This document shows, one piece after another, positions 1-47,148 of a DNA stretch of 64,000 bases; within the stretch, counting starts at the first letter, position 1; each line of letters starts with the position of its first letter. The notes beneath the pieces were generated by a model, which was not told where the DNA came from, did no database searches, and was given only the letters and a program-made list of their open reading frames with translations. Both the position numbers and the translations under genes were made by a program. This DNA comes from Mesotaenium endlicherianum (Eukaryota), in contig WELA01003378.1 of NCBI GenBank assembly GCA_009602735.1, positions 65,712-129,711 of the forward strand, read 5' to 3'.

Positions 1-2
1 AT

Positions 3-10281: not shown

Positions 10282-10971
10282 CTTGATGTCTTCAATATGT
10301 AGATTTTTTCAGGCCAATAGGCAAGTGTACAAGTGACTGAAGTAGAAACCATGTTAGCTAAAAATCAGTTCCCTTGATGTACATAATAGGGCAAGGTAAT
10401 TCACAAATAGATGGCAACCATTCTTTCACAATAAGTGTTTTGGTATTTGACCAAGACATTTGTGACCCATTTTCCTGGCTATTGCCAGAGAGCAGTATAA
10501 TAGAACACATTACTCTCTTCCATATATAACTCGTCTAAGTCACTCTTCTTTTTTATTGTGTGCCCTAGATTGGATTCTTGCGAAATACCGATACACACAA
10601 ACTGAGAGGGTTTGAAATAAAGTGAGAGTGCATTTTCTTAATGCCTTGTGCACTCGCAGTGTCGCATATTGAGAAATGGCAGCCAAATATGTCCTCGACT
10701 GATCTTTCTTCAAAAATCAACTACCATCTAAGCAGCACTTCAAAGGTGACGAGTTAAAAGACACGATGAAAAGAGTACATAAGACAATCAGAAACATCAG
10801 TTTGAAGACGAAGATTGACAATGCTCATTTTTACTGTTCACATAAAGTAAAAGAGAACAAAACCAAGGTAACACATACTGATGGACCTTGCTAAACAGGA
10901 TACTACAGTCTGTCAGCTGTGTAATAACTTCTTTCCGACAGGATTTATGCACCAAAGAATTCATGTGATAC

Positions 10972-16084: not shown

Positions 16085-16828
16085 TGTAAGGTCATAGGTT
16101 TATGAAGTGTATTTTTGAGTATCATGAAAGTATGTTTTGATTGTATAGTAAAGTAGAGTGCATTTTTGTGGTCATTTTGATATAAAGTTCATCGAATTTG
16201 GTCAAGTATTGAGAGAGTTATGGATTTCCGAAGTTTAATTAGTTTTGAGGTCGGTTGACGATTGTCCTTAATTCGCGGTGAGCGCGACCGTCGGATTGAC
16301 CGACAGCGTCGAGCGATCTGGCCCGTTAGAATGAACTCGAACCTTCACGTAAGTTCGGCTGACGCGGAGTGCCGACTAGGTCGATTTACCTAGAAGTTTC
16401 GGTTTAGCCTAGCGCGTCTAAGATAGAATATTCTAGTAATGTCGATGCATGTATGTGGACGTCAATTCGGCCCGACACGTCAGATTAGACTGATCTGGCT
16501 TACTCACGAATATTCTGGAAGGGACGATTTGACGAACACTTAGGAAAATCCGTAGCTTCCTCCTAGGGAGGAGCACTTAGGCAGAAAATTATAAATAGGC
16601 ATAACTTCTTTGTTTCTTATCAGTTTTCACTTCTGTAAATTTCTACGGGTTTGTAATGACAAGGCCTTTCATCCTACATCATTTGTGAGCAGTTTCCTGC
16701 TACTCAAAATGTTGAGTAATTTTCCTAAGCTTTGTTAGTGATATGCCGCTGCACTCTCTAGTATGATGGCAACTAGTTCCTTTCCTCGTGAGTCACTACG
16801 CTTCCACTAGGGCACTCTGCCCCTTTCA
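16085..16828 (+). repeat. B2 5' LTR (744 bp)
   Basis: TGTAAGG...CCTTTCA; near-identical to 21484-22226. Confidence 0.97.
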
Positions 16829-16830
16829 TC

Positions 16831-16842
16831 TGGTATCGGAGC
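16831..16842 (+). promoter_or_regulatory. Primer binding site, initiator tRNA-Met type (TGGTATCGGAGC)
   Basis: 2 nt after the LTR end; one difference from canonical TGGTATCAGAGC, compatible with a G-U pair. Confidence 0.88.
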
Positions 16843-16865
16843 AGGGCTAGTTTGCATATTATATT

Positions 16866-17897
16866 ATGGAGTCGCAGCCGGCAGCTGGAGGAGGCGAACA
16901 TGTTGAGCATGTTGAGCGCGCGGGGCAGCAGGCAGCACCAACAATGACCAGAGAGCAACAAGAGATGCAGGCGATGCTAAGACAAATGGCAAATGCAATT
17001 GGAGGAGAAGTCTACACCCAGTTTCAACAAAATATGCGCGCGGAGGTGGAGAGAATGGTGCGAGTTGTTATGGGGAACGCCGCTTCGACGAGTTCGGCAC
17101 CTGCACCTGTTGTACCACCGATTCATGTTAACCCAGTGGTGCAACCAGTTATTCCACCCGCATCAGGAGTGCGTGCACCTAAGCCTGAAGTTTATACTGG
17201 AGAGCGTGGATCGCCGCCTGTTCATCAATGGATTTTTGGAGTGAAGAAGTTTATGGAGTATTCTGCGCTCACGCCCGACAGGCAAGTCGCCTTTGTCATA
17301 ACTTTGCTGCAGAAGAGTGCTGGAGCTTGGTATGAACGAGAAGAGCAGCTGTCTGGAGTTCCTGCTACTGTTGATCAGCTATTTGAAGGCTTGAAGAGGC
17401 AATTTCAACCTATTGCACCCGAGGCTACCGCTCGAGATCTATTGGTGCGCCTTCGTCAACGAGGAAGCGTTCAAGAGTATGTATCGCGCTTCAACGAGCT
17501 GGTGCTTCAATGTCCATCCATGCACGAGTCGGAGATGATGGACAAGTTCAAGAGGGGACTCAAGCCAACTGTGGCCAAGGAAGTGGCGCTCAAGGACCCT
17601 ACCAGTCTTGGAGAAATGATGGCATTGGCAACAAGGGTCGACGCTGTGGAGTATAGTCAGAGGCAGTGGGGCAGCCACAACTTTGGAGGATATCGACACT
17701 TTGGATCTCAAGCGCCAAGCACGAGTGTTCAAGGTCCAGTACCCATGGAGTTGGGACTTGTGCAGTACCAGCGCAGGCAGCAGAATTTCAAGCCGAGAGG
17801 ACCGTGCTATAGTTGCGGCAAGCTTGGACATCTGGCTCGAGACTGTCATGTGAAGGCGAAGCAACCTCAACAGCAGGAAAAAGGAGGACGCCAGTAA
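16866..17897 (+). CDS. gag: Gag with CCHC zinc knuckle
   Basis: [44 protein letters not shown]. Confidence 0.95.
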
Positions 17898-20800
17898 GTC
17901 GTTCTGGGGTGTCTACTGGCGTGAAGACGAGAACTCACAAGGAGGTTATCCCCAGGAGCCTGCCGAGAAGCAAAGGACGAGACGTTGACAAGCCTATCAT
18001 CGTGGAAGGAGTGGTCGACGGCAACAAGGCGAAGTGTATGGTCGACAGTGGCGCAAGTGCAAACTTTGTGCACAAGAAGCTGGTGAAAGAGTGGCGAATC
18101 CCTGTGCAGAAGCATTATGAGCCTAAGGAGGCAATTTTGGCAAATGGGCAGAGACTCAAGTGTGGTGCACCTACGGAAGCTATTCACGTGGAAGTAGCGG
18201 GGCACCGGAGTAAGGAAGTTATGGAGCAGGCAGAGTTGGGTCACCATGAGGTGATATTGGGCCGACCATGGCTGAGGAAAGCCAACCCTCAAGTGCACTG
18301 GAGCACAGGACAAGTGAAAGTCCAAGGGCGTGATGGTCGAATGGAGACAGCGAAACAGGTGGAGGTAGATACGACCACAAGTAACTGTCTTCTGTCGAGC
18401 CTGCAAGTTAAGAAGCTATGCAGGGCGAATCAGGTGAAGGAGATGTACCTTGTTTCGGTGGCCCTGGCCAGGTCATCAGATGGAGCAAGCGTGAATCCTA
18501 ACAGCCTGGGCGAATGTACATCGCCGGAGGAGCAAGTAGTGGTGTCTGATCCCCTTGCTCAGAAGGAGCAGAGCCCAACTGCTCAAGAGAAGAAGCCTGC
18601 TGAGATGCCTGCCCAAATTAAGGCGCTGTTGGAGGAGTTCAAGTGCGTGTTTCCTGAGGAACTACCTACAGGATTACCTCCACAGAGAGCTATGGAGCAC
18701 AAGATTGAGTTGGAACCAGGGAGCAAGCCACCAGTGAGACCCGCCTATCGACAATCGTTTGCGGAGTTGGATGAGTTAAAGAAGCAACTGACGGAGTTAT
18801 TGGAGAAGGGATTCATCCGACCCAGCGAGTCTCCATTTGCAGCGCCAGTCTTATTTGTGAAGAAGAAGGATGGGACTATGAGGATGTGTGTCGACTACCG
18901 GGCACTCAACAAGGTCACCATCAAGAACAGGTACCCACTTCCACGAGTGGACGAGTTGATTGACAGGCTTGTCGGGGCGAAGTATTTCTCGAAGATCGAT
19001 TTGAGGAGTGGCTATCACCAGGTACGGATTGCGGAAGGAGACGTTCAGAAGACTGCTTTCAGAACTCGCTATGGTTTGTTCGAGTTCACAGTCATGCCTT
19101 TTGGATTGACTAATGCACCTGCTACATTCATGGGACTCATGAATAGTATCTTCAGACCCTACTTGGACCAGTTTGTGGTGGTATTTTTGGACGACATCCT
19201 GATCTATTCGAAGACCTTGGAAGAGCATGTGGAGCATCTGAGGAAGGTGTTGGAGGTCTTGAGAGATCAAAAGCTGTATGGGAAGATGAGCAAGTGCGAC
19301 TTCTGTCTCAAGGAGGTCGAGTTTCTTGGACACATAGTGGGAGCTGAAGGAGTCAAGGTGGAGCAGAAGAAGGTGCAAGCAGTCAGAGATTGGCCGGTAC
19401 CTGCTGATATTCATCAACTCAGGAGTTTCCTCGGCATGGCGAATTATTATCGACGTTTCATTGAAGGATTTGCCAAGGTGTGTGCACCGCTCACGGACAT
19501 GTTGAAGAAGCAGGAGAAGTGGCTATGGGGTGACAAGGAGCAGCAAGCCTTCGAGAAGATTAAGGAGCTGTTAACACAGGCACCTGTGTTGGCAATTGCC
19601 AGTCCAGAGCTTCCTTTCACCATCATCACGGACGCATCAAACTTTGCAGTGGGAGCCATTCTTCTCCAGGACCAGGGCAAAGGATTGCAGCCTGTGGCAT
19701 ATGAGAGCAGGAAGTTGAGTCCTGCTGAGCAGAACTATGCAGCACACGAGCGGGAGATGTTGGCTATTATCCAGGCTTTGAGGATTTGGCGATGTTATGT
19801 GGACGGCCGGAAGGTGTTCATCAAGACCGACCACAAGAGCTTGGAGAAGTTTATGACGCAGCCAACGTTGACACCAAGACAGGCAAGGTGGATGGAGTTT
19901 CTGCAACAGTTCGACCACAAGATTGAGTACTTACCTGGGAAGATCAACCCTGCAGACGCTTTATCCAGGAGGTGTGACCTTGCAGCTGTCTCAGTCATCA
20001 AGGAGAATATGGACTTCAAGGAGAAGCTTCAGAGAGGTTATGAGGAGGACCCAGAGTTTGCTGATGGTGGAGCAGCTGAGTCCAACTCGAGTATGCAGAA
20101 GAAGGACGGCATATGGTATTATGGTGATTCCAAGAGAGTGGTGGTACCTGACATCAAGGAGCTACGAGACTTACTACTTACGGAGCATCATGACTGCTTA
20201 TATGCTGGACACTTTGGAAGCGAGAAGACGGCAAGCGTGCTGAAGCGGGAATATTACTGGAGAAATATGGACAAGGACATCGAGGAGTGGATCAGGAGTT
20301 GCGATGCGTGCCAGAGAAACAAGACACCAAATCAAAAGAAGGGAGGTACATTGCGACCCCTGCCTATTCCAGAGTATCCTTGGGAGCAGATTGCTATGGA
20401 CTTCATCACATCGTTACCAGTCAGTGGTCAAGGGCACGATGCAGTATGGGTAGTGTCTGACAGACTCAGCAAGATGGCTCACTTCATTCCCATGAAGGAG
20501 ACTTCTACGGCAGCAGATGTGGCACGGCTATTCTTTGATCATATTTTTAGGCTACATGGGTTGCCGAAGGTGATTGTTTCAGATCGAGATCCAAGGTTTA
20601 CTAGCAACTTTTGGCGGTCATTGTTTACTTTGATGGGGACCAAGCTGAGTATGAGCACTTCCTATCACCCTCAGACAGATGGGCAGAGTGAGAGGCTCAA
20701 CAGAACTCTGCAAGAGGTGCTCAGGAGTTTCACTATGGAAGACCCTTCAGAGTGGGACAAGAAGCTACCAGGGTTGGAGTTTGCCTACAACAACAGCATG

Positions 20801-21496
20801 CAGGGATCGACCAAGCAGTCACCATTCGCTATGGTTTATGGGAGAGAAGTATATCATCCAGGGAACATCTTGTTGGAGAAGGCCAAGGAGACTCAGGTTC
20901 CTACTACACAAGCTTTTATGGAGCAGATGGCCAAGACTTGGGATATGGCGAAGACGTGTATTCGGAAGGCACAACAAGAGCAGGTCAAGCATGCTAACAA
21001 GCACAGGAGGGAAGTGACATTCCAAGTGGGCGACAAAGTACTCTTGTCCACAGAGAACCTACCTTTCACAGGCAAGAGGAAACTGCGGGCACGGTTTACA
21101 GGTCCCTTTGAAGTGCTCAAGCAGGTGAATCTAGTGACCTACAAGTTGGAACTTCCTCCAGGATGGCGTATCCATGATGTGTTCCATGTCAGTTGTCTAC
21201 GGCCATACGTTGACCCGAATGAAGGACATCCAGGACGACTACCTACACCGCCACCACCGGTCGAGATCGATGATGTATTGGAGTATGAAGTGGAGGCGAT
21301 TGTCGGCGATCGACGAGTCAAGCGAGGTCAACGAGTTGTCCAAGAGTATCTGGTCAAGTGGAAAGGCTACCATGCGGACGACAACACTTGGGAGCCAGAG
21401 GCCAACTTGACTCATTGTAAGAGTAAGTTGAGACGTTATCTGCAGAATGCGTCGAGGACGTCGCATCTTGAGAAGGGGGATGATGTAAGGTCATAG
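17813..21496 (+). CDS. pol: Pol (protease, RT, RNase H, integrase, chromodomain) in the -1 frame relative to gag; runs 13 nt into the 3' LTR
   Basis: [50 protein letters not shown]; the listed start is not a true ATG. Confidence 0.97.
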
Positions 21497-22226
21497 GTTT
21501 ATGAAGTGCATTTTTGAGTATCATGAAAGTATGTTTTGATTGTATAGTAGTGTAGAGTGCATTTTTGTGGTCATTTTGATATAAAGTTCATCGAATTTGG
21601 TCAAGTATTGAGAGAGTTATGGATTTCCGAAGTTTAATTAGTTTTGAGGTCGGTTGACGACTGTCCTTAATTCGCGGTGAGCGCGACCGTCGGATTGACC
21701 GACAGCGTCGAGCGATCTGGCCCGTTAGAATGAACTCGAACCTTCACGTAAGTTCGGCTGACGCGGAGTGCCGACTAGGTCGATTTACCTAGAAGTTTCG
21801 GTTTAGCCTAGCGCGTCTAAGATAGAATATTCTAGTAATGTCGATGCATGTATGTGGACGTCAATTCGGCCCGACACGTCAGATTAGACTAATCTGGCTT
21901 ACTCACGAATATTCTGGAGGGGACGATTTGACGAACACTTGGGAAAATCCGTAGCTTCCTCCTAGGGGGAGCACTTAGGCAGAAAATTATAAATAGGCAT
22001 AACTTCTTTGTTTCTTATCAGTTTTCACTTCTGTAAATTTCTACGGGTTTGTAATGACAAGGCCTTTCATCCTACATCATTTGTGAGCAGTTTCTTGCTA
22101 CTCAAAATGTTGAGTAATTTTCCTAAGTTTTGTTAGTGATATGCCGCTGCACTCTCTAGTATGATGGCAACTAGTTCCTTTCCTCGTGAGTCACTACGCT
22201 TCCACTAGGGCACTCTGCCCCTTTCA
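21484..22226 (+). repeat. B2 3' LTR (743 bp)
   Basis: Follows the PPT and is followed by TSD GCACG. Confidence 0.97.
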
Positions 22227-23031
22227 GCACGAATCTTGCCTGAGACATGTCATTCACTCTCACGCACTTTTGCCAAGAAGCAGAAGGAGCAGAAGGAGAA
22301 AAAGGAAGGAGAAGAAGGGCGCGAAGAAGAAGAAGGAGTTCCCAAGGCCATTGGAGAGCCGAGGCCCCACGCTTCTGCCGACGCTGAAGATTCGTCTGAG
22401 TGTATCATAGATAAGTTAGGATTGTAGGAGTTCCCAAGAGGGAATCTCACTGTTGAAAGTAGGAGAACTGCAGAATAGAATCTGCTAGAAGATTAGCACA
22501 GATTCGGCCGAACGCCACAAGTGTGGGTGAAGCAGCCTTAAAATGGTGAGTTGTGTGTTAGTTTCCAAGTTCTCAGAAGTCGCATTCGCATCTCGAAGAG
22601 AGAGAGTAGTATTGGCAAATAAAGCTCTCAGTGAAGAACTGAGTGAGCCGAGCCTGGCAGTGAAGAACAGTTAAGGCGCGGTGTTAAGTGGAGAGCTTGA
22701 CCCAGGCCAGCATAGACGTGTAGTTTCAGAGTTTTGTAAGCTGTGACTTTGTGAAAGTTAAGCGAAAGCTTGAAGGGCGATTTTCTCTGAATCTGATGTT
22801 GTATGTCAAGCTGCTTAGAGTGTGATTCTGCAAACTACAATTTGCTCGCCTGTGAACCCAAGAACCTTAAGGCTTAAAGCCTATGAGGAAGTAAGAGACT
22901 TCCGTCCTACTTCTGAGAACTTCGGTTCTGTGGTTCAGGTGAATAGAAATTCTCAAGCAAATTGGGGATTGAGGCCTGTGAGGGCTGCCGGTGCTCAACC
23001 TGGAAGGGGACCCGGAGAAATTCAACTGTAC

Positions 23032-24120
23032 ATGCGGTTGAGGAGTGGAAGACTCTACTACCCTGTGGAGCCTACGAAAGGTTTTGATTCAAGCCAGGGT
23101 CCACGAGGAAGTGAGACATCTGAGCGCACGGATAACCTGTGGAGTGAGCAACCGTTGGGAGACGAGTCTCGCCATACTGCCACGAACGGTGAGAATTCGT
23201 ATAACACGCGAGCCTTTGTACCCAACTTGGGCAGAGAGCACGACGTGTGGGGTAAAGATAGTGAGTCTTAGTCGCCATTCGAAATGACTGGTGATGATAA
23301 GGATGAAAATCCTAAGTTCAAGCTGTCTACAGAGTGTTTTAGTGGACGAACTGGTGGAAATAGTCTCACTTTCGAAGAGTTTGATGAAATCTATTGGGCT
23401 GATTTCTTTGAGAGAATCCAAAAGGATTCTTCTTACACTCAGTCAGTCGCTTTTATAAGCTTGGTTCAGTACTTGAACAAGGATGCCTTGTTGCTTTATC
23501 GCCAGTTCCGGAAGGATGAGAACCTTACCCAGGAATGGGCGTTTGACGAGCAAAAGAAGGCGAGAGATTTGAAAATCCAGAAAGAGGCTGCGAAAGCCCG
23601 CCTGTCCGCTTTGTCATCAGGAAGAGCGATACCTGCTGTGCTGTTGAGAGCGTAGACTTAGCTGCACTAATACAAGAACTAACAGATGCCATGAAGCAAC
23701 TCACCGAGGGTCAGCAGCGAGCGGCTACTTGAGATGATGATGCTGGGTTTGTCGCAGAATTGCGTAAAGTGTGTGCAGAATTGCCTGAAAAGATTGCTAA
23801 TGCTCAGGTACAAGTAACGCGCAGGGTTGCACCTTTTACAGGGCAGCATGGTGATAGTGCCACCACGGAAGCAAGCCATGCGCAAGCGTTGGCTAGTTGC
23901 CGTAGGAATATGGAGGCTGGGGATGACCAGTTAGATTCTGAGCACTGTCTGCGTCGTTTCATTAAGTTGCTTGAAGCAAAATTCCCCTGAGGATCGCAGT
24001 CTTAAGGTGCACCGTTATGTGCATTTTGTCCGTCAGAAGAACGAGACAGTGATGGAGGTCAAATCCAGATTGGTAGACCTTGCCAAGAAGGCAGGAATCG
24101 ATGAGCCTAGGATTGTAGCT
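23032..24120 (+). pseudogene. Element C gag-like gene, with stops and frameshifts
   Basis: MRLRSGR start, in frame through TAG 23269 with FSG..TFEEF segment; later gag-type motif RQKNETVMEVKSRLVDLAKK. Confidence 0.7.
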
Positions 24121-24136
24121 GACTAATTTCAGCACT

Positions 24137-24600
24137 GTGAGAGTGCAGAACAAGGATAGAGTTTTGACGTTCAACGACTGGGCCGCTCCCAATATCCTAT
24201 TGGACATTGGCGCACAGCCAGTAGTCTTGGGAAAGCGAGCTGTAAAAGCTCTAAGATTGACGGCAAGGGACCTGAAAGAAAGTCCTTTTCAGTTGAGGAC
24301 TGCATCTGGGCAGATTTCAAAGTCTAATGGAATGACCCGCAAGCCTGTGAAAATTGCAGTAAACTTGGGGAAACTTGAGGAGGCGTCACTGCTCATAGAA
24401 TGCACGGTGACATAGGCAGAGAATTATGATGTTCTCTTGGGGACAGAAGCCCTGATTCCCCTGGGTATGGTCATTGACCTGCGGAAGCAGAAGGTGACTT
24501 ACCAGTCGACAGATCGGCAGCCGACAGGAGAAATTCCCGTAAAGTTGGTTTGCTCGGGAGAGGCAAACTACGGACTGCTAGACTGTTGTGTGAATGACCG
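24137..24600 (+). pseudogene. Element C retropepsin-like aspartic protease, decayed
   Basis: ILLDIGA (DT/SGA-like), LRTASG flap, YDVLLG..L..LGMVIDL, with one in-frame TAG. Confidence 0.8.
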
Positions 24601-24855
24601 GTATCCAGACCATTATGACCTCATTATGCAACGCGAAGAGGAGGGTTACACCAGCGTCAACATGCCGACTCCCTTGGTTTGACAACCTCGGATTATGAAG
24701 CAATTGGAAGCTGTGAGTAACAGGGACCGTGGCCCGCAAGAGCTGCTGCCAGTTCCTTATCCAGTTAAGTCTGCTGCCAATTTGATGCCTGGAGTAGACC
24801 CGCTGCCGCAAGGCATTGTGAGGATGAAGGTCCTTTTCGCAGGAGAGGAGTAGTA

Positions 24856-25232
24856 GTGCTGGAGTTGTTCGCCGAACTTGGTTCTGGAACCATCTCACTG
24901 ATACAGCGAGGTATCCAGGTATCCAAAGTGCTGTATGTGGACAATGATGAGAGTGCTTTAACAGCATTTAAGGAGGTCATGGGTCAGATGCGGCAGATGT
25001 ACCATTTCAAGGCGTTGGTGCCTACTAGTTTGGTGCGTCTTCCTGAGGAAACATTCTCGATGTGAAGTTTGAGGACCTGTATGGTTACAGGATTGACTAG
25101 ATTTTTGCGGGATTCCCTTGTCAACCTTTCTCGCAAGCTGGGAACAGGAGAGGATTCAGTGACCCGCGAGCACAACACTGGGGATGGATAGTGAAAATCA
25201 TTGGTATGCTGCGGGAACGCCAGCATCTCTAC
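24856..25232 (+). pseudogene. C5-cytosine DNA methyltransferase of element C, N-terminal half (motifs I-V)
   Basis: VLELFAELG (motif I), YVDND, then after a frameshift AGFPCQPFSQAGNRRGFSDPR from 25107; ends at HLY on a family A LTR. Confidence 0.88.
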
Positions 25233-26051
25233 TGAAATGAATCGACTTACCAAATAGGCGATTAACAATTAATAAAGATCTTTATATCAGCAAGTAATCT
25301 TTATGGATTTTCCGTTAACTGATTAAAACACACTAGCAGTGGACAACACTCGTAAGTCAAATGCGAGTAAACCAGCATCAATCATGCAATCAGTAAACTC
25401 ATACATAAGCAAGGCTAGGAGACAGTGCGTATCAATGGCTTCTCGCCTTGGATTCAGATCTCTCTGAGTAAGCTGTACAAGAGAGTTGGCCTCGTTTCCA
25501 AATGCCGGACTCGAGAGCAATGCCTAGCATATGTACATGGAATGAGTTTACTGTTCAACGGCCAGTGCGATGGCACCGCTTACCCGGGAGTTAACCACGT
25601 TGGTAGAACCTCGGTTAACCAAATCCACCGCCATCTCCCATCATCCCGAATCGCCATCCATCATAGGGATGTCATCTGGCCATTCATCTAGCCTATCACA
25701 CTTAGATGCATATCGAGGCAGTTCGCTGCTACCGAGTACGGAAGTCAGCTGGCTGTCAAAGAATGTGTCGGCAAGCTGACTTAAGTTGACTTCAGCCTGC
25801 TGCTTCCGGCTGAGTGATTAAACTGCTATTAAGTATAAAGTCCAGCAGAATGACTATTTAATTAGAGTTCAGCATGCTAAACTTGATTAACTATTATATT
25901 TAAATGAATATTATATCTACCAATATATTGATTCATTACAATCCCTCCAACTTAACTTGTTGTCGCCTCAACGACATTAAACTGTAGAAATCTTAAATAA
26001 GGGAACTGAGCCTGACCAGCCTCCGCCACTGACTGCCCTTTAGCCTGTCAC

Positions 26052-27751
26052 CTAGGGGGTTGTTCCTGGGGCTCCAGAATCAGGAGACTGAGATTTGGAC
26101 CTAGATCTGGATAGCCCTCTAGGTCTGTCAGCTGGCCTTCTAATGAACCCCGTTTGTTCTAAAGGTTGACCTCGAGGAGAACGAAGGATGGTAGCCTGCT
26201 CTTCACCCACTTGGGTGTTGATCCCCACATAGACAGGCATTCCAGTAGGATGCTGAAATACATTGGCAAGAGGTACATGTCCCTGAGCAAAGGGGGAGGC
26301 GGGCATACCTCTGGCCACCCCGCGTGGCCCTCTTCTGAAACCCCTGCCATCTGGGGATTTCTGCCAGTGTCTGCTGCCAAGTACAGTCAAATCAGCTTCT
26401 TCTCCTGCTTGGGCAGGTGGGCTGGGGGAGCGAGTGCGGGGTCCAGTTGCCTCCATGACCGGGATCACGTTCCATATACCTGATCTTGGTTCCTTAGGAA
26501 GTGCCCCTGCCTGCTCCCGTGTCTCCTGAGTACCAGCTCCTGATGCTTCTCCTCTGCCTTGTTCTTCTTCCTCATCCCCCTCATCCTCCTCCTCTGAGAG
26601 AGTAGGAGTCTCGTCAACTAAGTCGTTTCGCTCTCTGGTAGACATGGAGTAGTCTACTGATCTCCCGTTCTTAGGGCGCGCTGGAGGTTGCTTGGCCTTC
26701 AGCCTGCTAATATCTATCCGGCCTGCATTCTTTGCCCATTTGACGAAGGCATGCTTTCCCTTAGAGAAGTAATCTCTTCCCCTCCTCCTGTGCTCTTTGG
26801 TCTCTGCATTCATATTGCTCAGGCAGCCATTCAGCCTGGGATCCCAAGGGGCAATGTGAGGAGGTAGGATGAGGCAGCCGTCTAGGCCATAGTGGAAGTC
26901 GTCGGGTTGGGCTCGGTCACAATCCTGCTTTTTGTTTGTGACGGTCATTCACCTCCAGCCTGTGGGCTGCTGGTAGTACTGGGGTCCATGCTCAGCTTTT
27001 CTCAGTTTACATGGGAACCAGTGGGGAGAAAACATCTGCTGTCCTGCTTCCCTGGCCAAGTACTCCCAGCTCCTTCTCTCAACTTCATTGTAAGCTGGCA
27101 ATAGTGTGAGGTAGAATACCGTATCCTTAAAGCTATCGGGCCGCAAGCTTACCATCCTGATGAGTCTCTGATCTCCCACTATTCCCGGTATTGGGACTGG
27201 CTTGTACTCAGAATCATCGGCATGATACCGGGCCTGCTCTGCTGTATAGCCCACCATCTTGGCATAATCCTCGTAGAGGACCACACCAGTGTGTCTCTCA
27301 ATGTACCTATCCAGTGCTGCAGTTCCTTCCCTCTATAGCAGTGCTGTCTGTTCCAGCTTGTTGATCTCCTGGGCTGCCAGCAATGCTTCCTTCAGGTTAT
27401 CAAAGTTTTGGCCACCCACCACAGTATACCTGTAAGTGGCCAAGCTCTTACGCCTGTCCGCTTCAGCCTTTTACCTTCTCTCCTCCTCTGCCGCTGCCGC
27501 TTCTCTCGTTGTTTCTTCTGTCTCTCCTCCTCAGCTTTCCTGAGGTTTTCCGCTTCCTGATCCTTCTTCCTCTGTGCTTCTTCTGCCGCCTCTTGTTGTT
27601 TGCGGACCCTCTCTTGTTCGATCCTGGTGAGGGACGTCGCCGTCAGATCCTTCTGGTATTGCTCCATTGTCCTCTTAGCTTCTTCTGCCTTGCGCTTCCA
27701 ATCCTCCTTTTGGGTGGTGGGAGCCATCCTGTACATGTAACCAGGGCACAA
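26052..27751 (-). pseudogene. Decayed copy of the family A extra ORF
   Basis: Three ORF fragments align to 2667-4367; in-frame stops and one frameshift. Confidence 0.9.
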
Positions 27752-28131
27752 GTTAGTAGGATATTGACCTTTGTCCTAGAAGTTGCAGGAAGGGAGTAAG
27801 TTCGTTTTAGTATGGTGTATTCGTTCCTGTTTACCTTACAGGGTGCTTGCTAGGAGTTGACGTAGTTGCGGTGCGCTAGACATAAACATATGAATGTGGT
27901 TATAGGTGTGTTAAGTGATGCATGGCTGTGCGAGGCTCTTTGTCCATTCGCTAAAGGTGCTTTATGTGGGCCAGGCTGTCCCCTCTGTCACTATGCTGAC
28001 ACTTAGGGTTCACATAACTGTCCCTAACTGTCCCTTTCTCGCTCTCGCACACTAACTGTCATATACTTTCCCCTCCAACTTAAATGGAGACAGGACCTCC
28101 TGTCACCTGCCCGTGTCAACTGAAATGACTG

Positions 28132-31100
28132 TTAGGGAGGTGCTCCAGCCGCCCGAAGGTGGAATCGTTTCAACGCCCCTTTGGCATTAGTCAAATGGTC
28201 TTTAAATTCCCAAGTGTCCCCTGAGGCATCGTAACCCTTCCATCGAATGAGGTACTTCATGACATATTTAGACGATCGACAGACCGAGCGCGCGTCTAAA
28301 ATCTCCTCAACCTCATATTCCTCATGGTCGCCGTCCCGGACAGCGGGGACCGGTCCCGGTTGGACAGGTAACCGACCCGTGAACAGTGTATCACCTTTGA
28401 TGTAGGGTTCCAGGAAGGAGACATTAGAGACCGGATGACCCTTGTATTCGGTTGACACGTTCAGTTTGTAAGCGTTCTGACCGACACGACGCACCACCGA
28501 ATATGGACCGACCCAGACAGGGCCAAGCTTTTTCTTGACCACACCAGGGAGGTACAGGTGCTGAGAATGTAGTTTGACCAAATCGCCTTTAGAAAAGGTC
28601 GGTTCGCGACGGTGCTGATTAGCGTACTTTTGTTGGTTTTCTTGGGCTCTGTGTAGGTTTTGCTGGACTTCTGACAGGGTGTCAGCAAACTCCTGAGTTA
28701 ACTGGAGAGAGACCGGATTGTCAATCCCTTTAGGGTGAGTTAAAGACTCCCCTAGGACATCTAAAGGAGACTTAGGGACTCTACCCAGGCTGAGTTCAAA
28801 AGAAGTCTTGCCCATTGACGCGTGCACCGCACTGTTGACCGCAAATTGGATTTGGGGTAACAAGTCATCCCAATTATCTTGTTATTGGTTAATATAGGCT
28901 CTCAGTACCTCTTGCAGAACTCGGTTAGTTCTCTCAGTCTGCCCATCAGTCCGAGGGTGGTTTGCTGTGCTGAGCAGCTGTGTGACTCTCATTAACCCCA
29001 TTAAAGCCCTCCAGAACTTAGAGATAAATTTTGAGTCTCTGTCTGAGATTGTATTAGAGGGTAGCCCATGTTGGCATACTACATGGTTGTAGAACTGTCG
29101 CTGTTTCGAGTGCAGTTACTTTGACGGTTGTGGGGATGAAAATGGCCATTTTTGTCAGTTTATTCACGACTACCAATATCGAATCATGCCCATTGGCAGT
29201 TCGTGGCAGTGTGACCACCCAGTCCATTGATATCGTTTCCCAGCGACCAGCTGGGATGGGCAGTGAATGTAAGAGGCTCCCCGGTGGTGTGTGCCTAGAC
29301 TTGTTCTTTTGACATTGGTCACAAGACTTAACGTATTTCAAGACCTCTCGAGGTAAATCCTCCCAATGATAATGTTTTGCCAGTTTGCCAACAGTTTTGG
29401 CCTGCCCCAAATGCCAACCCAGTAAACTGTCATGTGCTTGACTCAATAAAAGGGACCTTATTTCCAAGTTATGAGGAATGACCAGCTTCAGCCCGCCTGA
29501 AGCGGTTTCAGACACCCAGACCCCTCCCTGAAGCTTATACCCGAGTGCAGTAGCACGACACATACCAGTAGTGGGGCTGGGCTCTAATGTTGGGTCAGAA
29601 AGGTAGGCTTTCCTAAGTTGTTCAAGGAAGGACTTTTTTACTTTTAGTGAAGTGAGTGCACACAGAACTTTATCTACAGCATGCTGACTAAAGTTCCTTT
29701 CTGTCAAGTCAGGTCTTCTAGAGAGTGCATCAGCAGGATTCAACTTCCCTGGTTTGTAGTCGATCTGGACTTGGAACTGCTCCAGCATCTGGCTTCAGCG
29801 GTTCTCCCTCCTCGACAGCTTGGACTTCTTCTGAAAGTGGGTCAGAGCTAGATGATCTGTAATCACCTTAAAAGCTTTACCATGTAAGCATGCTCTCCAC
29901 TGTTTGAGAACATGAATGATAGCTAGCAGCTCTTTATCATGCACTGGCTAATTAATCTTCGCTGGATTAAATTTCATAGACTTGTACAACACAGGGTGCC
30001 AATGTTGCCGTACCTTACCATCCTTAGTGGTTTTGTCAGCAGGCTGCAACAAAATAGCATCCAGTCGGAGGCATCAGTCACCACCTGCACCGGTTTGCTG
30101 GGGTCATACACGGCTAGCACGGGGGCAGAACAAGGGGCATCTTTAAGGGTCTAGAAGGCAGCCTGCTGCTCTCCCCTCACACATACCCTATGTCTTTCTT
30201 AGTAAGATCAGTGAGTTTACTGGCCTTTGTAGAATAATTCTCAATAAATCTACTATAGTAATTAGCCAACCCGAGGAAGGATCTAACTTCAGAGACAGAC
30301 TGTGGTACTGGCCAGTCCCTTATGGTCTGGACTTTCTTAGGATCCACGCTGATACCTTCTTTGTTGACAATGTGGCCTAAGAATTCAATACTTTCTTTAA
30401 AGAAATCACACTTGCTCATTTTAGCATATAAGTGATTTTTTCTCAGAGTGGCCATCACTGTGTTCAAGTGTCCAGCGTGCTGAGCTTCATCTATAGAGAA
30501 AATTAATATATCATCCAAGAAAACTTGCACAAACTTATCCAAGTAAGGTTTGAAAATGTCATTCATAGCACCCATGAAGGTCGCAGGGGCATTAATCAGT
30601 CCAAATGGCATCACGTTGAACTCATAGTGTCCATAACGTGTGCGGAAGGCAGTCTTGTGCTCATCCCCCTCAGCAATTCTGATTTGATGATAACCACTCT
30701 TGAGATCTATCTTACTGAACACCTTAGCACCAGACAGGGTATCGAGCAAGTTCTCGATTCTGGGTAAAACATACTTGTTCCTTACTGTAATTCTGTTCCG
30801 AGCTCTGTAATCCACACACATCCGCATATTGCCATCCTTTTTCTTAACGAACAGGATGGGTGCGCCATAAAGGTAATTTATTGTGGGAAATGTAACCATT
30901 TTCCTCAAGCTCTGCGATCTGTGTTTTCAACTCCTCGCTCTTGACATAAGACAAGCCATAAGTGCGTTGCCAGGGTGGCTGACTCCCAGGTAATAAATCA
31001 ATTCTATGATCTACTTCACTCTTAGGGGGTAGTTCTGGAGGCATATGAAATACATCCGTATACTTAGCAACAACTTTTGCAGCAGTAGGGTGCTCCGGAG

Positions 31101-32380
31101 GGCTTACCTTTTTGTCCACCACTTCTTCAGGTTGAGGAGGTACCTCTCTTAGCAGCAGACAAAACATTCTGTCTTCCTTCTGGTTCCAGCTTTTGACGAA
31201 CTCCATTGCATTCAGCAACTTGCATCTTTCTGGAAGCCTCTTCTTTTCCTTCATTTGCCATCCATACAGGACAAGAGGAAAAGCACTCGTGTGTCCTCCC
31301 GGGATACTTGAGGCATCTCTAAGGAATATTTTTCTATTCCCTTGGGTGACAGTAGGCAGCCTTAGCCGCTTAACTGAGTCCTTATGGATAAAAGTATGTG
31401 ACGCCCCTCCGTCAACAAGTGCCCTAACCTTCCTACCTGCAATCATGCAATGCAGTAGGATAGGGGGGACTGTCTTTTCCTGACTTTCGCATTGTTCTCC
31501 TGACTTAGCAAAGAAATGTTGGACATCGGGTGGAACAAGAGCATCCAGAGTGTGCACTCTCTGGATGTCTATATTGCTGATGGTCTCCTTTATCTGGTTG
31601 TCAGGCATGCATAGTGAATCCATTTCAGCAAGACCCATAATACCTGCTACGAGGGCAGTTTGTGACGACTCACTATCTCTAGCATCCTCACAGCCAGTAG
31701 ACTGGAAGACCGACTGTTGTTGAATTTTAAAGGCTGGTCTTTTCTCTCGACCTTAGGGAGGTGCTTGACTGGACACTTCTCTCTGAAGTGACCTGGCTGC
31801 TGGCAATGGAAGCAAATCGATTTTGCTGAGGCTGGTCTTGGCTTAGTCCTACCACCACCTCTTCCATAGCCGCCTCGAGGGAAACCACCTCTACCTCTAG
31901 ACTGTATGGCATTATACTCATACTCATATCCATCACCCTGATCATCCTCAGCCTGGTCTCCTTCAATTGCATTGTAGGAATCGTGGGGCTTTTTGACACC
32001 AAAGCATTACTCTGGCGCTTGTGATTGAACTGCTGCTGATCCCAGGCATCAGCATCCTGGATCAAGTCAGCCAGTTTCTCATACTTCTTCTCAGCGAAAT
32101 GACCAGAGACTTCGGATTTCAAGCCATACCTGAAGTATGCTATCCTATACCGTTCTGGCAAGTCTGGCTGCTTCATCATGTTCTCCTGGAACTTTTGAGC
32201 AAACTCAGCAACTGACGTGGTCTGCTTCAGTGTTAGGGAGATCATCGCATAGATAGCTTTCTCCTGCTAATTGATGACATCAAACTTCTCATGCAACTTC
32301 TCGACAAACTCTACCCACGTAGGGTCATCGAGTTGCAGAGTCTTACGCTCCCCTTTCCAGTAAAGCCACCAGTCTGCGGC
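28132..32380 (-). pseudogene. Family A gag-pol (originally one frame), fragmented
   Basis: Gag (LKQTTSVAEFAQKF), RGG tract, CFHCQQPGHFREKC in frame with protease LVDGGA, then RT, RNaseH, integrase and chromodomain fragments. Confidence 0.92.
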
Positions 32381-33101
32381 TGAAACGAATCGACTTACCA
32401 AATAGGCGATTAACAATTGATAAAGATCTTTATATCAGCAAGTAATCTTTATGGATTTTTCGTTAACAGATTAAACGGCAAAAGGACAACACACTAGCAG
32501 TGAACGACACTCGTAAGTCAAATGTGAGTAAACCAGCATCAATCATGCAATCAGTAAACTCATACATAAGCAAGGCTAGAAGACAGTCCGTATCAATGGC
32601 TTCTCGCCTTGGATTCAGATCTCTCCCAGTAAGCTGTACAAGAGAGTTGGCCTCGTTTCCAAATGCCGAACTCGAGAGCAATGCCTAGCATATGTACATG
32701 GAATGAGTTTACTGTTCAACGGCCTGTGCGATGGCACCACCTACCCGGGGGTTAACCACGTTGGTAGGACCTCGGTTAACCAAATCCACCGCCATCTCCC
32801 ATCATCCCGAATTGCCATCCATCATAGGGATGTCATCTGGCCATTCATCTAGCATACCACACTTAGATGCATATCGAGGCAGTTCGCTGCTACCGAGTAC
32901 GGAAGTCAGCTGGCTGTCAAAGAATGTGTCAGCAAGCTGACTTAAGCTGACTTCAGCCTGCTGCTTCTGGCTGAGTCGTTAAACTGATATTAAATTATAA
33001 AGTCCAGCAAAATGATTATTAACTAGAGTTCAACAGGCTGAACTTATTTAACTGTTATATTTAAATGAATATTATATTAACCAATATACTGATTTATTAC
33101 A
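32381..33101 (-). repeat. Family A LTR (721 bp) joined directly to the interior of A2 gag, no PBS
   Basis: TG/CA termini; flank GAAAGACCATTTG identical to that of the solo LTR at 39210. Confidence 0.93.
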
Positions 33102-34421
33102 CAAATGGTCTTTCCAGACCCTCCAAAATTTCTTGAATTCTGACTGCATTTTTCAACTGTGCTGCCAATTGTATCTTGTAAATGCCCTTTGGCCTCTGGC
33201 TTTGGGCTCATCAGAACAGGTGTGGCGGGCAATCTGTCGACTGTCTCCTTCCTGCGTTCTTCAAAAATCACCTCCAGGCAAATGGTCTTTCCAGACCCTC
33301 CAGAATTTCCTGAATTCTGACTGCATTCTTCGGCCCATTTGCCAATATTGCACTAGCGTTCTTGATTTCTTGACGTTGCCGCGTCTGGGGATGGGCTGCC
33401 GTAGACCTGGTCTTGGGCCATGTTTCGTAACTCAGAAGTGGTCTCTTCCTCCCATTCCGGCATCCTCACAAATATTTGGCTGGAGCGTTCTGCAGATAAT
33501 GGGACCTCCTGTGATTTGCTTGCTGCAGCGCTCGCCAAAGGGTTTGCTTCACCAGTTGCCTGGTCTTCCATGGCTACGTCGCCCCGCAGCCTTCGCAGCT
33601 CTCTTTCCAGAGGGTCGTGTAGAGCCGTCATCCGATTATCAATTTGTGCCAGTAGGTCTTGACACCTGGTCAGCTCTGCCACTCTGGTTTCTCTGAGTGC
33701 TTCACCTTGGTCAGCCTCAGCTGCGTCCCTTTCAACACCGTATTCTTCTTGTCGCTGATGCGCTTCCCTGATAGCTCTCTGATCAGAGATTGGCACCACA
33801 TGGACTCCAATCGTTACTGGTCTCGGCCTGGGCATAGGCTTGTCAGAGAATGTCATCTGCTGCCAAGTCATGATCGTCTCCACCAACCACGTCATGGAGT
33901 GATGCCCAATCATATTGCCGAATATCTTTCCAGCGTCGTCCTGTCCCACCATCGCAACAATTTCTTGTGCAATGAAGTTGGGTACCCCCAGGCACCTTCC
34001 CTTCTCTTCAGCTGTCGCCTCTCTCCACTGAGCTTCTCTGTCGTGCGCATTCTTGACCATTCTTGGTCCTCCATTCACGAATGCGCGTGATCCTCGGTAT
34101 GCCGGTATGGCTCGTTGACGACGTACTGTGGATAGGAATCCCTCCTGATCACTGGCTTGGTTTCCACCATCAGTGCTTCTCCCACAGAAACTGCCGTTGG
34201 TGTGCGCCGCGTAATCTCCTCCATCTCCCTCAGGATTTCAATGGACATGCCGTTGGTCCAGAATAGTCTGGCCCGGTGTGAGAGTCCTCCATGCCTGGCG
34301 TCGTTGATCAATACATGATGACCCAGGGTGGAGTCGAAGACCAGCCATGGATCTCCTGGCTTCATCGGGTTGTAATTCATCCCTGGATGTACATTCTCAA
34401 TCACAAACATCGGTGGGTAGA
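33102..34421 (-). pseudogene. Inverted continuation of element C: MTase C-terminal half (motifs VI, VIII, IX, X) plus downstream charged region
   Basis: PPMFVIENV, DARHGGLSHRARLFWTN, REATAEEKGRCLGVP, KIFGNMI; starts with TSD TCTAC. Confidence 0.88.
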
Positions 34422-35175
34422 TGTAATGAATTAACATATCAATAGATATAATATTCATTTAAATATAATAGTTAATCAAGTTCAGCCTGCTGAACTCTAG
34501 TTAAATAGTCAGTCTGCTGGACTTTATATTTAATAGCAGTTTAATGACTCAACCGGAAGCAGCAGGCTGAAGTCAACTTGAGTCAGCTTGCCGACACATT
34601 CCGTAGTGATTTGAGGTATTATATATTAGTATGCTTATATTTCAATGTTTTCAAATATATTTGGAGTAGTATTGTGTGGAGTCAAGTGTGAATAGGTACT
34701 CTAGTAACTTGGTTCATGTCCTTGAACCTTCCAAGGCATTTTCGAAGTTAGAGGAAAGACCTAGAAAACTCCATGTGGCAAAAGTCAGATGTGCCATTTT
34801 TAGGTCAAAAGGACATGTGTACATTATTCTAGAAAGAGGTGGCAAGTTTTGGGATGTGTTGGGTGCCAACACATCAACATACACCTTCCTAGAAATTACT
34901 TATGTAGCAAGTATATAAACAAGAGCTAGAACATAGAAAGAGAATCCAGAATGACTCTTGTACTTGCCAAAATCCAGAAATATATTAACTTTCAAGAAGC
35001 CATCTCTCTTTCAAGAAGCTACCACTTGTGTTCAAAGATCCTTGTCTTGAATAGATAAAGTATTCTGTTTTACTAAGTACTTTATCTATCTGTTTCACTA
35101 CACATTCTGTGACAGCCAGCTGACTTCCGTACTCGGTAGCAGCGAACTGCCTCGATATGCATCTAAGTGTGATAG
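34422..35175 (+). repeat. Partial family A LTR (displaced 5' LTR of A2), carrying one insertion and truncated by another
   Basis: Shares variants (TAATCAAG, TAATAGCAG, CTTGCCGAC, GTGTGATAG) with 25233-25940; adjoins the TSD partner. Confidence 0.88.
34602..35102. mobile_element. Probable solo LTR of another family (D), 501 bp
   Basis: CGTAGTGA...TCACTACA inverted termini; 5-bp TSD CATTC (34597-34601 and 35103-35107). Confidence 0.8.
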
Positions 35176-38100: not shown

Positions 38101-39073
38101 ATCAGAGATAGGTGGAAGCGTGTGAAATCAGGGAGCGATCTTCGCCCTTATAATGAATTTCGTTTACTCTTCTATAACCCTTAACTCACTTATCGTAGTG
38201 TGCCATAGTTGCACACGAATACAAGGCACAAGAAAGAGGCGAGCTTGAGGACTAGAGCTTCTCCTTTAGAAACTCATGACCTCTTGCCTACCAGGCATAC
38301 AAGCATGTATAAGCACATACACAACATCAGGGGACTGAATAGCAAAGGCGCTCTCATTCAGATGACCATAAAGTAGCTAAAACACATCCCACTGACTTAG
38401 GTGCAAAACCATTGAATTTATTTGCTGTGTGACCCCAAAATGTCAGAGGGCATAACTCTGTCAATACTGCTCCAAATTGAGAAAACTCAACGGCAACGGA
38501 TGCATCTTGACGAGACCTTTTTGAAAAAACCTAGCTCGCTCCATTTGGAGCGCAAACAAAGCAGCCATGTCAATTTCCGTGAAGGCTGGTCATTAGAACG
38601 AACCCAAAAAGTGCACACATGACTTGCCAGTAGAAATCCGACTGTAAAGCCTACTGTCCAGAATAAGGGACCACGAGATCCCAGCCTGCTATGTACCTAG
38701 TGACCACCTGGTTGACCACGGCGCAAGGTGCGCCGTTTCGTGGGAAGCCCGTTAAGTTGGGACCCACGGATCTAGGTATAACGACCATATTAATTGGTCG
38801 GTTGACTGAAGTCCTAACTGTTCAATTGACTGACGACGGCTCCGCCTACCCAGGAGTTAACCACACTGGTAGGACATCGGTTTACCGAATCTCAGTCGAC
38901 CTCCCGACTTTCAGTATACTACGGTCACATGTGCCAATCTACAAATAATAATCTAAATGAATACATCTATCCTCAGCGTACTGAAGCTAAGTACATTGAC
39001 TAATATCAAGCGAGCTTACTATATGTCAACCTACTGATATTATACCCTATATATAACTGATATATAAATCTCA
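35176..39073 (-). mobile_element. Putative non-coding LTR element(s), family E: LTR about 38049-39073, PBS 38036-38047, no recognisable ORF
   Basis: Minus strand reads ...GCATTTCA-A-TGGTATCGGAGC; LTR shares a box with the family A LTR; left edge TGTAATGAAC interrupts an A LTR; boundaries uncertain. Confidence 0.55.
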
Positions 39074-39080
39074 GCAAACT

Positions 39081-40954
39081 ACCAGGTCTATGGAAGCCCA
39101 TCCCCAGACGCGGCAACGTCAAGGTATGAAGAACGCCAGTGCAATATTGGCAAATGGGCCGAAGAATGCAGAATTCAAGAAATTTTTGAGGGTCTGGAAA
39201 GACCATTTGTGTAATGAATCAGTATATTGGTTAATATAATATTCATTTAAATATAACAGTTAAATAAGTTCAGCCTGCTGAACTCTAGTTAATAATCACT
39301 CTGCTGGACTTTATAATTTGTTATCAGTTTAACGACTCAGCCGGAAGCAGCAGGCTGAAGTCAGCTTAAGTCAGCTTGCTGACACATTCTTCGACAGCCA
39401 GCTGACTTCCGTACTCGGTAGCTGCGAACTGCCTCGATATGCATCTAAGTGTGGTATGCTAGATGAATGGCCAGATGACATCCCTATGATGGATGACGAT
39501 TCGGGATCATGGGAGATGGCGGTGGATTTGGTTAACCGAGGTCCTACCAACGTGGTTAACTCCCGGGTAGGCGGTGCCATCGCACTGGCCGTTTAACAGT
39601 AAACTCATTCCATGTACATATGCTAGGCATTGCTCTCGAGTTCGGCATTCGGAAACGAGGCCAACTCTCTTGTACGGCTTACTGAGAGAGATCTTAATCC
39701 AAGGCGAGAAGCCATTGATACGCACTGTCTTCTAACCTTGCTTATGTATGAGTTTACTGATTGCATTATTGATGCTAGTTTACTCGCATTTGACTTACGA
39801 GTGTCATTCACTGCTAGTGTGTTGTCCTTTTGCCGTTTAATCAGTTAACGAAAAATCCATAAAGATTACTTGCTGATATAAAGATCTTTATTAATTGTTA
39901 ATCGCCTATCTGGTAAGTCGATTCATTTCAATTTGCCTGGAGGTGATTTTTGAAGAACGCAGGAAGGAGACGGTCGAGAGATTGCCCCCCACACCTGTCT
40001 TGATGAGCCCAGAGCCAGAGGCCAAAGGGCAACCACAAGACACGGTTGGCAGCACAGCTGAGTCGATCACCAGGCAAATCATGGAGCAGTTGCTGGAAGC
40101 AGACGCCCCTCGACTCAAGGAAGAGAAAGTGGCGAAAGCAGCTCGCGTTCTATAGTCAGCCATCATCAACATGGCGAGGCTCAACACAGGAGGGGATGAA
40201 GAATCGGCGCCTCCTAGAACAGAGAAGCCAGAGGAGGGAGAGGATGCAAAGATGCAAGGCCTCTCAGAGTTGGAGTTGCCATCACTCAACAATGGAGGGA
40301 ACGCCAGGGAAGAAATTCCACGTTTTCCCACGCCAGAGTTGGATCTGCTTGACTTACAGGAGCTAAGGACAGACAACTGGGTAGCTGACCACCTAATGGG
40401 CCAAGCCCGGCAGACCTTTGAAGAATTAAGGTCACCAACATCTAGTACCCCTACTGCTAGTCTTCCAGTGGCAGAGCCCAAGTCAACCGCACGACCGCCG
40501 CAACGGCAGGAGGTGACTGCCTGCACTGCTAAAGTGGAGACAGTGCAAGGTAAGCCCGAGGGTCGCGCAAGCAGACCAAAGAAGGTGGCTCGTGAGGGTA
40601 ACGCATCTTTTAGGAGGATGCTATAGCGATATTTCAAGCATAAGGGGAAGGCTCAGAGAGTGGGCGTTCCGCGAGGAACCACAGCCCCACCTCCTCCGCC
40701 TCTGCGGGATATTCTGCAGAGAGAGGGAGAGGACGGCTTGATTCGCAGGGCAATGGCATTGGGCATTAGTGTGCCGCTAGGCATGAACACACCCTTGTTG
40801 CAACTATCAGATCTTAGGGTGCAGAGGTCGGAGGCACCTGCTCCCATGACACCTGCAATCATAGAATGGGAACTGATGGATCTGGGGAACACCATCAGCC
40901 GCTTGACCGCAGCAGATGATGTTTTCCTCGCACAACTAGCGGCACCTCAAAGGC
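39081..40954 (+). mobile_element. Second fragment of element C downstream region, decayed low-complexity ORF, split by a solo LTR
   Basis: 39081-39209 and 39931-40060 align to the reverse complement of about 33150-33412. Confidence 0.75.
39210..39930 (+). repeat. Family A solo LTR (721 bp) with TSD ATTTG
   Basis: ATTTG at 39205-39209 and 39931-39935; empty-site sequence visible near 33270-33295. Confidence 0.95.
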
Positions 40955-41187
40955 TGAAAGGGGCAGAGTGCCCTAGTGGAAGCGTAGTGGCTCACGAGGA
41001 ACAAAGCTAGTTGCAATTATACTCAAGAGTGCAACGGCATATCACTAAGAAAGCTTAGAAAAAATACTCAACATTTTGAGTAGCAAAAAATTGCTCACAA
41101 ATGATGGGAGATGAAAGGCCTTGTTTTTACAAACCCGTAGAAATCTACAGAAGTGAAAATTGATAAGAAGCAAAGAAGTTATGCCTA
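40955..41187 (-). repeat. Truncated family B LTR (3' 233 bp) fused to an ABC transporter exon
   Basis: Matches 5342-5574; homology ends at ...TTATGCCTA. Confidence 0.9.
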
Positions 41188-47100: not shown

Positions 47101-47148
47101 AGTTCCGCATCCCTCGCAGTCACATACATGCGATTCAACAAGCGTTGA
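41187..47148 (+). pseudogene. PDR-type ABCG transporter, 5'-truncated (TMD1-NBD2-TMD2 only), with nonsense and frameshift lesions
   Basis: [71 protein letters not shown] near 41724, TAA 43190-43192, frameshift near 46225. Confidence 0.87.

Follow-up and report, generated by a model that had tools for sequence, protein, structure and literature searches.

Retrotransposons that carry a cytosine-C5 DNA methyltransferase (MTase) are known from few lineages, and in those parts of the literature available to us the streptophyte example named is that of Klebsormidium only. KnitGypsy-Dnmt3 of Klebsormidium nitens, as far as the accessible sections of its report describe it, contains an intronless DNMT3-related domain within Pol that is under purifying selection, and the hypothesis that this enzyme methylates the element's own complementary DNA (cDNA) was put forward by the authors of that report themselves (PMC5890265). 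The same sections describe de novo CG methylation by SymbioDIRS-Dnmt3 in yeast (PMC5890265). The accessible portion of a preprint on related elements names only 'streptophytes (Gypsy-DNMT3)' and makes no mention of Mesotaenium (bioRxiv 10.64898/2026.05.21.726589). Here, we describe a 64,000-nucleotide (nt) stretch of the Mesotaenium endlicherianum genome (assembly GCA_009602735.1, contig WELA01003378.1, positions 65,712 to 129,711; hereafter the window), in which a first-pass annotation had proposed a decayed retroelement with its own C5 MTase gene, hidden by an insertion and an inversion. The MTase-bearing element found in the window is real and well supported; it is of a known sort and apparently new for the Zygnematophyceae, the algal class that is sister to land plants. 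Openly licensed PubMed Central papers and bioRxiv yielded no description of such an element in either Mesotaenium or the Zygnematophyceae. The link to charophyte DNMT retrotransposons drawn in the first pass holds in that Mesotaenium is a streptophyte alga, the kind of host that a comparison with de Mendoza et al. (2018) would predict.

Split MTase gene and its join in other DNA

The protease and C5 MTase gene of the element is split at the sequence TCTAC by an antisense Ty3/gypsy insertion, and its 3' half is inverted. The N-terminal half of the MTase (N-half; 24847..25232, plus strand) contains motif I (LELF at 24859), motif IV (PC at 25116) and motif V, is damaged by a frameshift near 25044 and a stop codon at 25098-25100, and ends with the first copy of TCTAC (25228..25232, plus strand), which is directly followed by a long terminal repeat (LTR). 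The C-terminal half (C-half; 33850..34416, minus strand) begins with PPMFVIENV, in which ENV at 34398 is motif VI, and continues with HRARLFWTN at 34278 (motif VIII), a short target-recognition region from which 28 nt are deleted at 34100, a motif IX-like segment at 34027 and a motif X-like segment at 33922. The second copy of TCTAC (34417..34421, minus strand) adjoins an LTR end. We take the motif numbers I-X to follow the general numbering scheme for C5 MTases. The motifs on the gag/protease side and in the MTase lie where the first-pass annotation had placed them, with the first half ending at 25232 and the second read on the minus strand from 34421.

Because the C-half alone has no match in Pfam, NCBIfam, PHROGs or PDB, the join required a separate test. 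The run search listed 24 runs, 20 of which contain part of 22300-25232 and none of which contains half of its words; contigs of runs X1, X2, X6 and X23 were aligned to 22240-25330 and those of X6, X7, X2 and X1 to 33066-34458. One X6 contig (849 nt, depth 7.28) matches 24566-25232 with its letters 181-849 and 34237-34421 with its letters 1-185, and the two matches overlap by exactly 5 letters, which correspond to the target-site duplication (TSD). The identity of this contig across the two alignments is based on the same run, length and depth and on complementary coordinates. The contig also connects the MTase with the linker that follows the protease. In addition, the loose ends of contigs behind 34421 resemble the reverse complement of 25198-25227, with 27 of 30 letters identical in X6 and 28 of 30 in a 1662-nt contig of X7, and two X1 contigs have a similar loose end. 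Thus, the in-frame join through the collapsed TSD that had been proposed is found in a contig spanning both halves, and the loose ends in X7 and X1 agree with it. Runs X6 and X7 are labelled as other organisms, and their contigs are ~95% alike to the window with depth near 7; we do not claim that they represent other species.

Type of the MTase

The N-half is matched by PF00145 at 25047-25232 (E 3.7e-11; 43.5 bits against a Pfam cut-off of 22). The C-half alone gave no PF00145 match, the N-half being the sole match in 96 fragments; it also gave nothing in Pfam, NCBIfam and PHROGs, and pieces of it gave nothing relevant in PDB. A motif scan of viral contigs (IMG/VR) yielded 125 loci; in 111 of them the motif falls within a reading frame, and 103 have PC, ENV and motif VIII in that order. 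These 103 phage MTases constitute the DNMT3-like profile; they were selected by motif, and similarity to them in motif VIII is circular. In a 15-member sample of this set, PF00145 was found in all 15, and the top PDB matches were DNMT3B/3A at 170-179 bits, ahead of every bacterial structure, with HhaI at 125-133 bits.

The read-through MTase aligned to the phage profile as one domain (positions 8-290 of 314) with 59.2 bits, and scored 45.2 bits when the selection motif was masked; the N-half alone scored 35.6 bits. When 422 control stretches were appended to the N-half, the two best overlapped the MTase itself and the best non-overlapping stretch reached 38.0 bits. Motifs I, IV, VI, VIII, IX and X are in canonical order across the join, with IX-X weak when taken alone (E 0.038). 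The canonical order claimed for motifs VIII, IX and X is therefore confirmed by a single domain with lower-scoring controls, and the expected PF00145 support extends over the join in the sense that a profile of PF00145 members aligns through it. An HhaI-like profile (19 matches) covers motifs I-VI through the join as well as IX-X but fails to align VIII; it gave 70.1 bits for the joined protein and 63.8 bits for the N-half, the mean and maximum of 200 shuffled controls being 60.7 and 67.1 bits, respectively.

Several comparisons place the enzyme nearer to DNMT3. Motif VIII reads HRARLFWTN in the window and HRARYFWGN in DNMT3B. The motif I piece scored 9.7 bits with the DNMT3-like and 1.7 bits with the HhaI-like profile, and the motif IX-X piece 5.9 and 4.0 bits, respectively, in profiles that differ in depth; neither piece played a part in selecting either profile. 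When window pieces were added to a bacterial profile, the score of DNMT3A rose from 33 to 41-45 bits and that of HhaI fell from 173 to 137-158 bits. As judged from these sequence comparisons, the MTase appears to be DNMT3-leaning; a quick tree places it in neither of the two reference sets.

Searches for relatives returned no family member among 98 candidates with the C-half protein, no match among 1.84 billion representatives with the 253-residue piece after the deletion, and, with the motif IV piece, 19 matches among 86 candidates, all of which were prokaryote-type MTases and none a family member; all three are weak blanks. A viral scan for the pattern gave 0 of 11, and the Atlas provided no usable lead on the family. 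Two candidates were rejected: the 81 records obtained by a phage tblastn search with the C-half had a best E of 0.7 and were taken as chance, and metagenome locus L001 (one of 137 pattern matches) matched over 19 residues in a GC-rich contig that is unrelated. As a separate observation, 103 of the 125 short-motif viral loci (L007-L126) encode compact C5 MTases.

Organization of the MTase element

The order of parts in the element is a 5' non-coding part, a gag-like frame, the protease, the MTase and a long frame. The 5' non-coding part (22232..23031, plus strand) has undefined edges, and its start may be upstream of 16080. It is possibly a terminal repeat, because its depth is above that of the coding part in runs X1 and X2; no second copy was found within the window. 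Positions 22344-22908 are ~20 to 100x deeper than the coding part in X2, and RNA reads of run X23 on the element are confined to the same segment. This excess possibly reflects solo repeats or short derivatives.

The gag-like frame (23032..24123, plus strand; ATG at 23032) contains two stops and two frameshifts and, compared with an X6 contig of which 212 of 1123 letters were aligned, has lost at least 0.9 kb at 24122-24128. It is followed by the protease (24125..24520, plus strand; D-x-G at 24203; one stop at 24413-24415) and by a linker to the MTase (24521..24846, plus strand) with a stop at 24680-24682 and a frameshift near 24830-24841. Within 24170-24520, three related Pfam families gave matches, each just under its cut-off, i.e. 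PF13975 (E 1.1e-5; 26.4 bits against 28.2), PF13650 (E 8.6e-5) and PF08284 (E 9.6e-4), and suggest that a retropepsin-type aspartic protease is present. Of the gag-like and retropepsin remnants described in the first pass, the protease was thus upheld by these three families, whereas the gag call, which is a motif resemblance by eye with a fold model of pLDDT (predicted local distance difference test) 49, was not.

Behind motif X, an acidic low-complexity frame (33155..33849, minus strand) with a single stop (33355-33353) is covered by contigs of X6, X7, X2 and X1, and a host-frame continuation of 340 codons with two stops and no known domain was identified at 39931..40954 (plus strand). The element therefore extends, at 39081-40954, beyond the coordinates first given for it. 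Together the frame behind motif X comprises ~530 codons with three stops and no known domain, and the other two frames over the same 655 codons contain 29 and 30 stops. Within the window, the element stops at a truncated LTR (40955..41187, minus strand) of the chromovirus family found at 16085-22226. No adenine MTase or chromodomain was found in the retained parts of the element, which has lost its 3' end and at least 0.9 kb downstream of gag.

Pieces of an ABCG/PDR-type transporter gene were identified at 41300-47150, comprising the first membrane, second nucleotide-binding and second membrane domains; its first nucleotide-binding domain was not found within the window. Because the transporter gene starts right after the truncated LTR and seems to lack this domain, a local deletion is suggested, and one deletion may have removed this domain as well as the MTase element's 3' end.

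Other copies of the element and expression

The copy in the window is dead and belongs to a multi-copy Mesotaenium element. In run X1, the 5' stretch drew 6013 aligned contigs and the 3' stretch 847, distributed over all four identity bands. The family clearly consists of many divergent copies, although a copy number cannot be read from summed contig depth. In other copies, contigs of X1, X2, X6 and X7 contain an intronless MTase with mostly unbroken frames and no split. The MTase is thus linked to protease and gag-like DNA elsewhere too, and not as an intron-containing gene.

The aligned stretches of the window copy contain 13 breaks, namely stops at 23269, 23730, 24413, 24680, 25098 and 33355, frameshifts near 23640, 23984, 24830 and 25044, deletions at 24122-24128 and 34100, and the insertion. 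For ten of the 13, most of the depth in one or more runs lacks the break; the break near 24830 is missing from 22% of the depth in X1 only, and two were not among the matches listed. The element is therefore a decayed copy, as had been supposed, in which most breaks are missing from other copies. An X2 contig shares 288 of 289 letters with 24845-25133; the breaks in this interval are therefore real and not read errors. The coding part is nearly silent in the X23 sample, a poly(A) RNA run of which about 6 in 100 were read and 103 reads aligned.

Inserted chromovirus and inversion

The insertion is a decayed Ty3/gypsy chromovirus (25233..33101, minus strand) that is antisense to the MTase element and retains a gag knuckle, protease, reverse transcriptase (RT), integrase and chromodomain. 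Its 3' LTR is located at 25233-25940 (minus strand) and its 5' LTR, which is likely recombinant, at 32381-33101 (minus strand). The latter is adjoined at its start by a 53-nt duplicate of host-element DNA (33102..33154, minus strand) that ends with ATTTG, and an empty ATTTG site is present at 33279-33283. On the other side, a 180-nt LTR end (34422..34601, plus strand) is located beside the second TCTAC and is nearest to the LTR at 25233-25940 (92.8%, versus 87.2 and 88.3% for the remaining two LTRs), and additional LTR scraps were found at 35100-35184 and 38817-38891. A duplicate of the host-element DNA of 33411-33279 (39081..39209, plus strand; 93%), again ending with ATTTG, precedes a solo LTR of the inserted family (39210..39930, plus strand), which has the TSD ATTTG on both sides.

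This solo LTR, which is opposite in orientation to the insert and sits within the second copy of host-element DNA, is the likely partner of the inversion. It is also the closest match of the LTR at 32381 (95.8%), to which 53 nt of the solo LTR's flank are attached. These identities fit an inversion between LTRs of opposite orientation, together with a duplication by an unspecified path: the 5' LTR of the insert would have recombined with the solo LTR at the ATTTG site, accompanied by a small duplication, and the frame of the MTase element would then resume at 39931. Before 33153, the loose ends of X6 and X7 contigs agree with the reverse complement of 40062-40091 in 29 of 30 positions. No contig bridging the inversion junctions of this locus was found among the contigs listed. 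The region 34602-39080 is a 4.5-kb AT-richer filler that interrupts an LTR three times; it has no Pfam match and contains loose inverted repeats at 34977-35053 and 38048-38087.

Proposed role of the MTase and alternatives

We consider it reasonably probable that the element is a Gypsy-type retrotransposon akin to KnitGypsy-Dnmt3 whose MTase would methylate its own cDNA. The proposed mechanism follows the model of de Mendoza et al. 2018 (PMC5890265). The protease and MTase would be parts of one Pol polyprotein, with RT and RNase H encoded further downstream and lost here at 40954. The polyprotein would be packaged and cut in the particle, where the MTase would meet the cDNA during its synthesis. 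The enzyme would then methylate CG de novo, an activity assumed because the MTase is modelled on SymbioDIRS-Dnmt3 as described in the accessible sections of its report, and new copies would enter a methylated genome already marked. The mark may shield the new copies from recognition or limit harm to the host.

Several results weigh against this proposal. In the profile test with window pieces, human DNMT2 also rose by 6-8 bits. The identity of the gag-like frame is unconfirmed, with Pfam, PHROGs, BLASTP to the neighbouring gag and the Atlas all blank, and the link between the protease and MTase frames is only partly seen in contigs of other copies. In X23, 20 of 30 bins had no depth, and all 20 are among the 21 bins that span 22968-25151. 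The CpG observed/expected ratio of the element (0.53-0.66) is not below that of neighbouring gypsy DNA (0.44-0.61) or of genes (0.57-0.65), and no trace of extra CpG loss was found in this copy. The KnitGypsy enzyme itself showed no activity in yeast, a result that its authors regarded as inconclusive in the accessible sections of their report (PMC5890265).

The origin of the enzyme could also differ. Its catalytic loop (GFPCQPFSQAG..RGFSDPR) fits best with HhaI-type enzymes and is closest to prokaryotic ones, and in a quick tree of 49 rows (18 HhaI-like MTases, 30 phage DNMT3-like MTases, the window protein and no eukaryotic DNMT3) the window protein lies on a 3.57-long branch outside both sets. 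These two features also weigh against the preferred reading and would be expected if the same kind of element, likely with the same job, had separately captured its MTase from the compact DNMT3-like group of viruses or prokaryotes, and repeated independent captures are documented in the accessible parts of the two reports (PMC5890265; bioRxiv 10.64898/2026.05.21.726589). Such a capture is nevertheless unlikely in our judgement: the HRARxFWxN motif is as in DNMT3B, DNMT3A gains most in the profile test, and the host is a streptophyte. A similarly doubtful version is that a virus- or prokaryote-type MTase was separately captured by an abundant family, possibly without RT, that has a conserved 500-residue frame behind the enzyme.

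No RT, RNase H, integrase or recombinase of the MTase-element family was found within the window, in accordance with the first-pass remark on RT and integrase; all RT-like stretches in the window derive from the three chromovirus copies. This and the ~530 codons that follow motif X with no RT also tell against the cDNA proposal and would agree with a non-autonomous family consisting of gag, protease, MTase and the long frame, which has no RT of its own, is copied by another element and supplies methylation. If true, an RT-less family would trade methylation for being copied. We regard this as improbable, as an LTR fragment truncates the frame at 40954, beside the transporter gene, which suggests a local deletion.

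An action of the MTase mainly in trans, on host chromatin or rival elements instead of its own cDNA, was raised as a possibility for Symbiodinium in the accessible sections of PMC5890265, and the many copies of the family would accord with it. It is very improbable here, given that the coding part is nearly silent in X23, that a position embedded in Pol favours action within the particle (an argument of the PMC5890265 authors in the consulted part of their peer-review file) and that the methylome of K. nitens, as described in the accessible part of the same paper, is ordinary and plant-like. Finally, a retrocopy of a host DNMT, or a chance or assembly juxtaposition with the MTase as functionless cargo, is hardly credible: the copy is dead, motif I reads FAELG and the inversion junctions are unbridged among the contigs listed, but the unsplit join and mostly unbroken frames in independent runs largely refute it for the join, the 288/289 match of the X2 contig over 24845-25133 excludes read errors there, and the duplicated pieces are 90-96% alike, not identical.

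Other features of the window

The 5' flank of the MTase element contains a young, apparently intact Ty3/gypsy chromovirus of an unrelated family (16085..22226, plus strand), with TSD GCACG and LTRs alike at 734 of 743 positions (98.8%). It encodes gag (16851-17897) and a 1227-residue pol product (17813-21496) with protease, RT, RNase H, integrase, SH3 and chromo domains. An inverted piece of this family (the 5' LTR plus ~110 nt) is present at 5231-6238 beside a diverged LTR scrap of the other family, and represents another LTR-linked rearrangement. The second chromovirus family has two copies in the window (1-5226 and 25233-33101) that are 89-92% alike; in each, pol and the 3' LTR are separated by an additional long frame (581 residues at 2622-4367) that has no convincing Pfam match. 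Ordinary host genes were found at 8951-14253 and 52690-63656, including those for a pyrophosphatase, a Nudix hydrolase, an aminotransferase, an endonuclease I-like protein, a GHMP kinase and a PP2C. The PP2C exon at 62805-63581 shows 100% identity to a protein labelled jgi/Mesen1, a code that denotes M. endlicherianum (PMC11316218).

Comparison with known systems

The locus itself is dead and matters for the family to which it points. An abundant Mesotaenium family would broaden the streptophyte record and might point towards a very old plant lineage of self-methylating elements. It would also provide another natural enzyme for the question of what retroelement MTases do, as the Klebsormidium enzyme gave no activity in yeast.

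The compact DNMT3-like MTases of phages (L007-L126, IMG/VR) share R.RLFWTN and a short target-recognition region with the window protein. Their spacing between motifs VI and VIII is 33-34 residues in most cases, compared with 41 in the window, and they are stand-alone viral genes that form a clade (support 96) excluding the window protein in the quick tree. EpiLTRs of Cymbomonas and Euglena are, according to the accessible portion of their description (bioRxiv 10.64898/2026.05.21.726589), likewise LTR retrotransposons with a cytosine MTase, but carry in addition an adenine MTase and a chromodomain, neither of which was found in the retained parts of the window element; their DNMT forms a sister lineage to DNMT4. 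SymbioDIRS-Dnmt3 and SymbioLINE-Dnmt of Symbiodinium, in the sections of the report at hand (PMC5890265), are also retrotransposons bearing a C5 MTase; they differ in their dinoflagellate hosts and in their DIRS (tyrosine recombinase) or LINE architecture, and, unlike in these, an aspartic protease precedes the MTase in the window element.

KnitGypsy-Dnmt3 was compared by description only, from the accessible sections of its report. Its host belongs to the Klebsormidiophyceae, whereas the present one belongs to the Zygnematophyceae, and its RT, RNase H, integrase and DIRS-like repeat layout are unseen in the truncated window copy, which has in turn a prokaryote-looking catalytic loop and ~530 codons after the MTase. 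Both elements reside in streptophyte algae, both carry an intronless, non-permuted, DNMT3-leaning MTase within the coding region of a multi-copy retroelement, and in both a Gypsy-type retropepsin lies upstream of the MTase.

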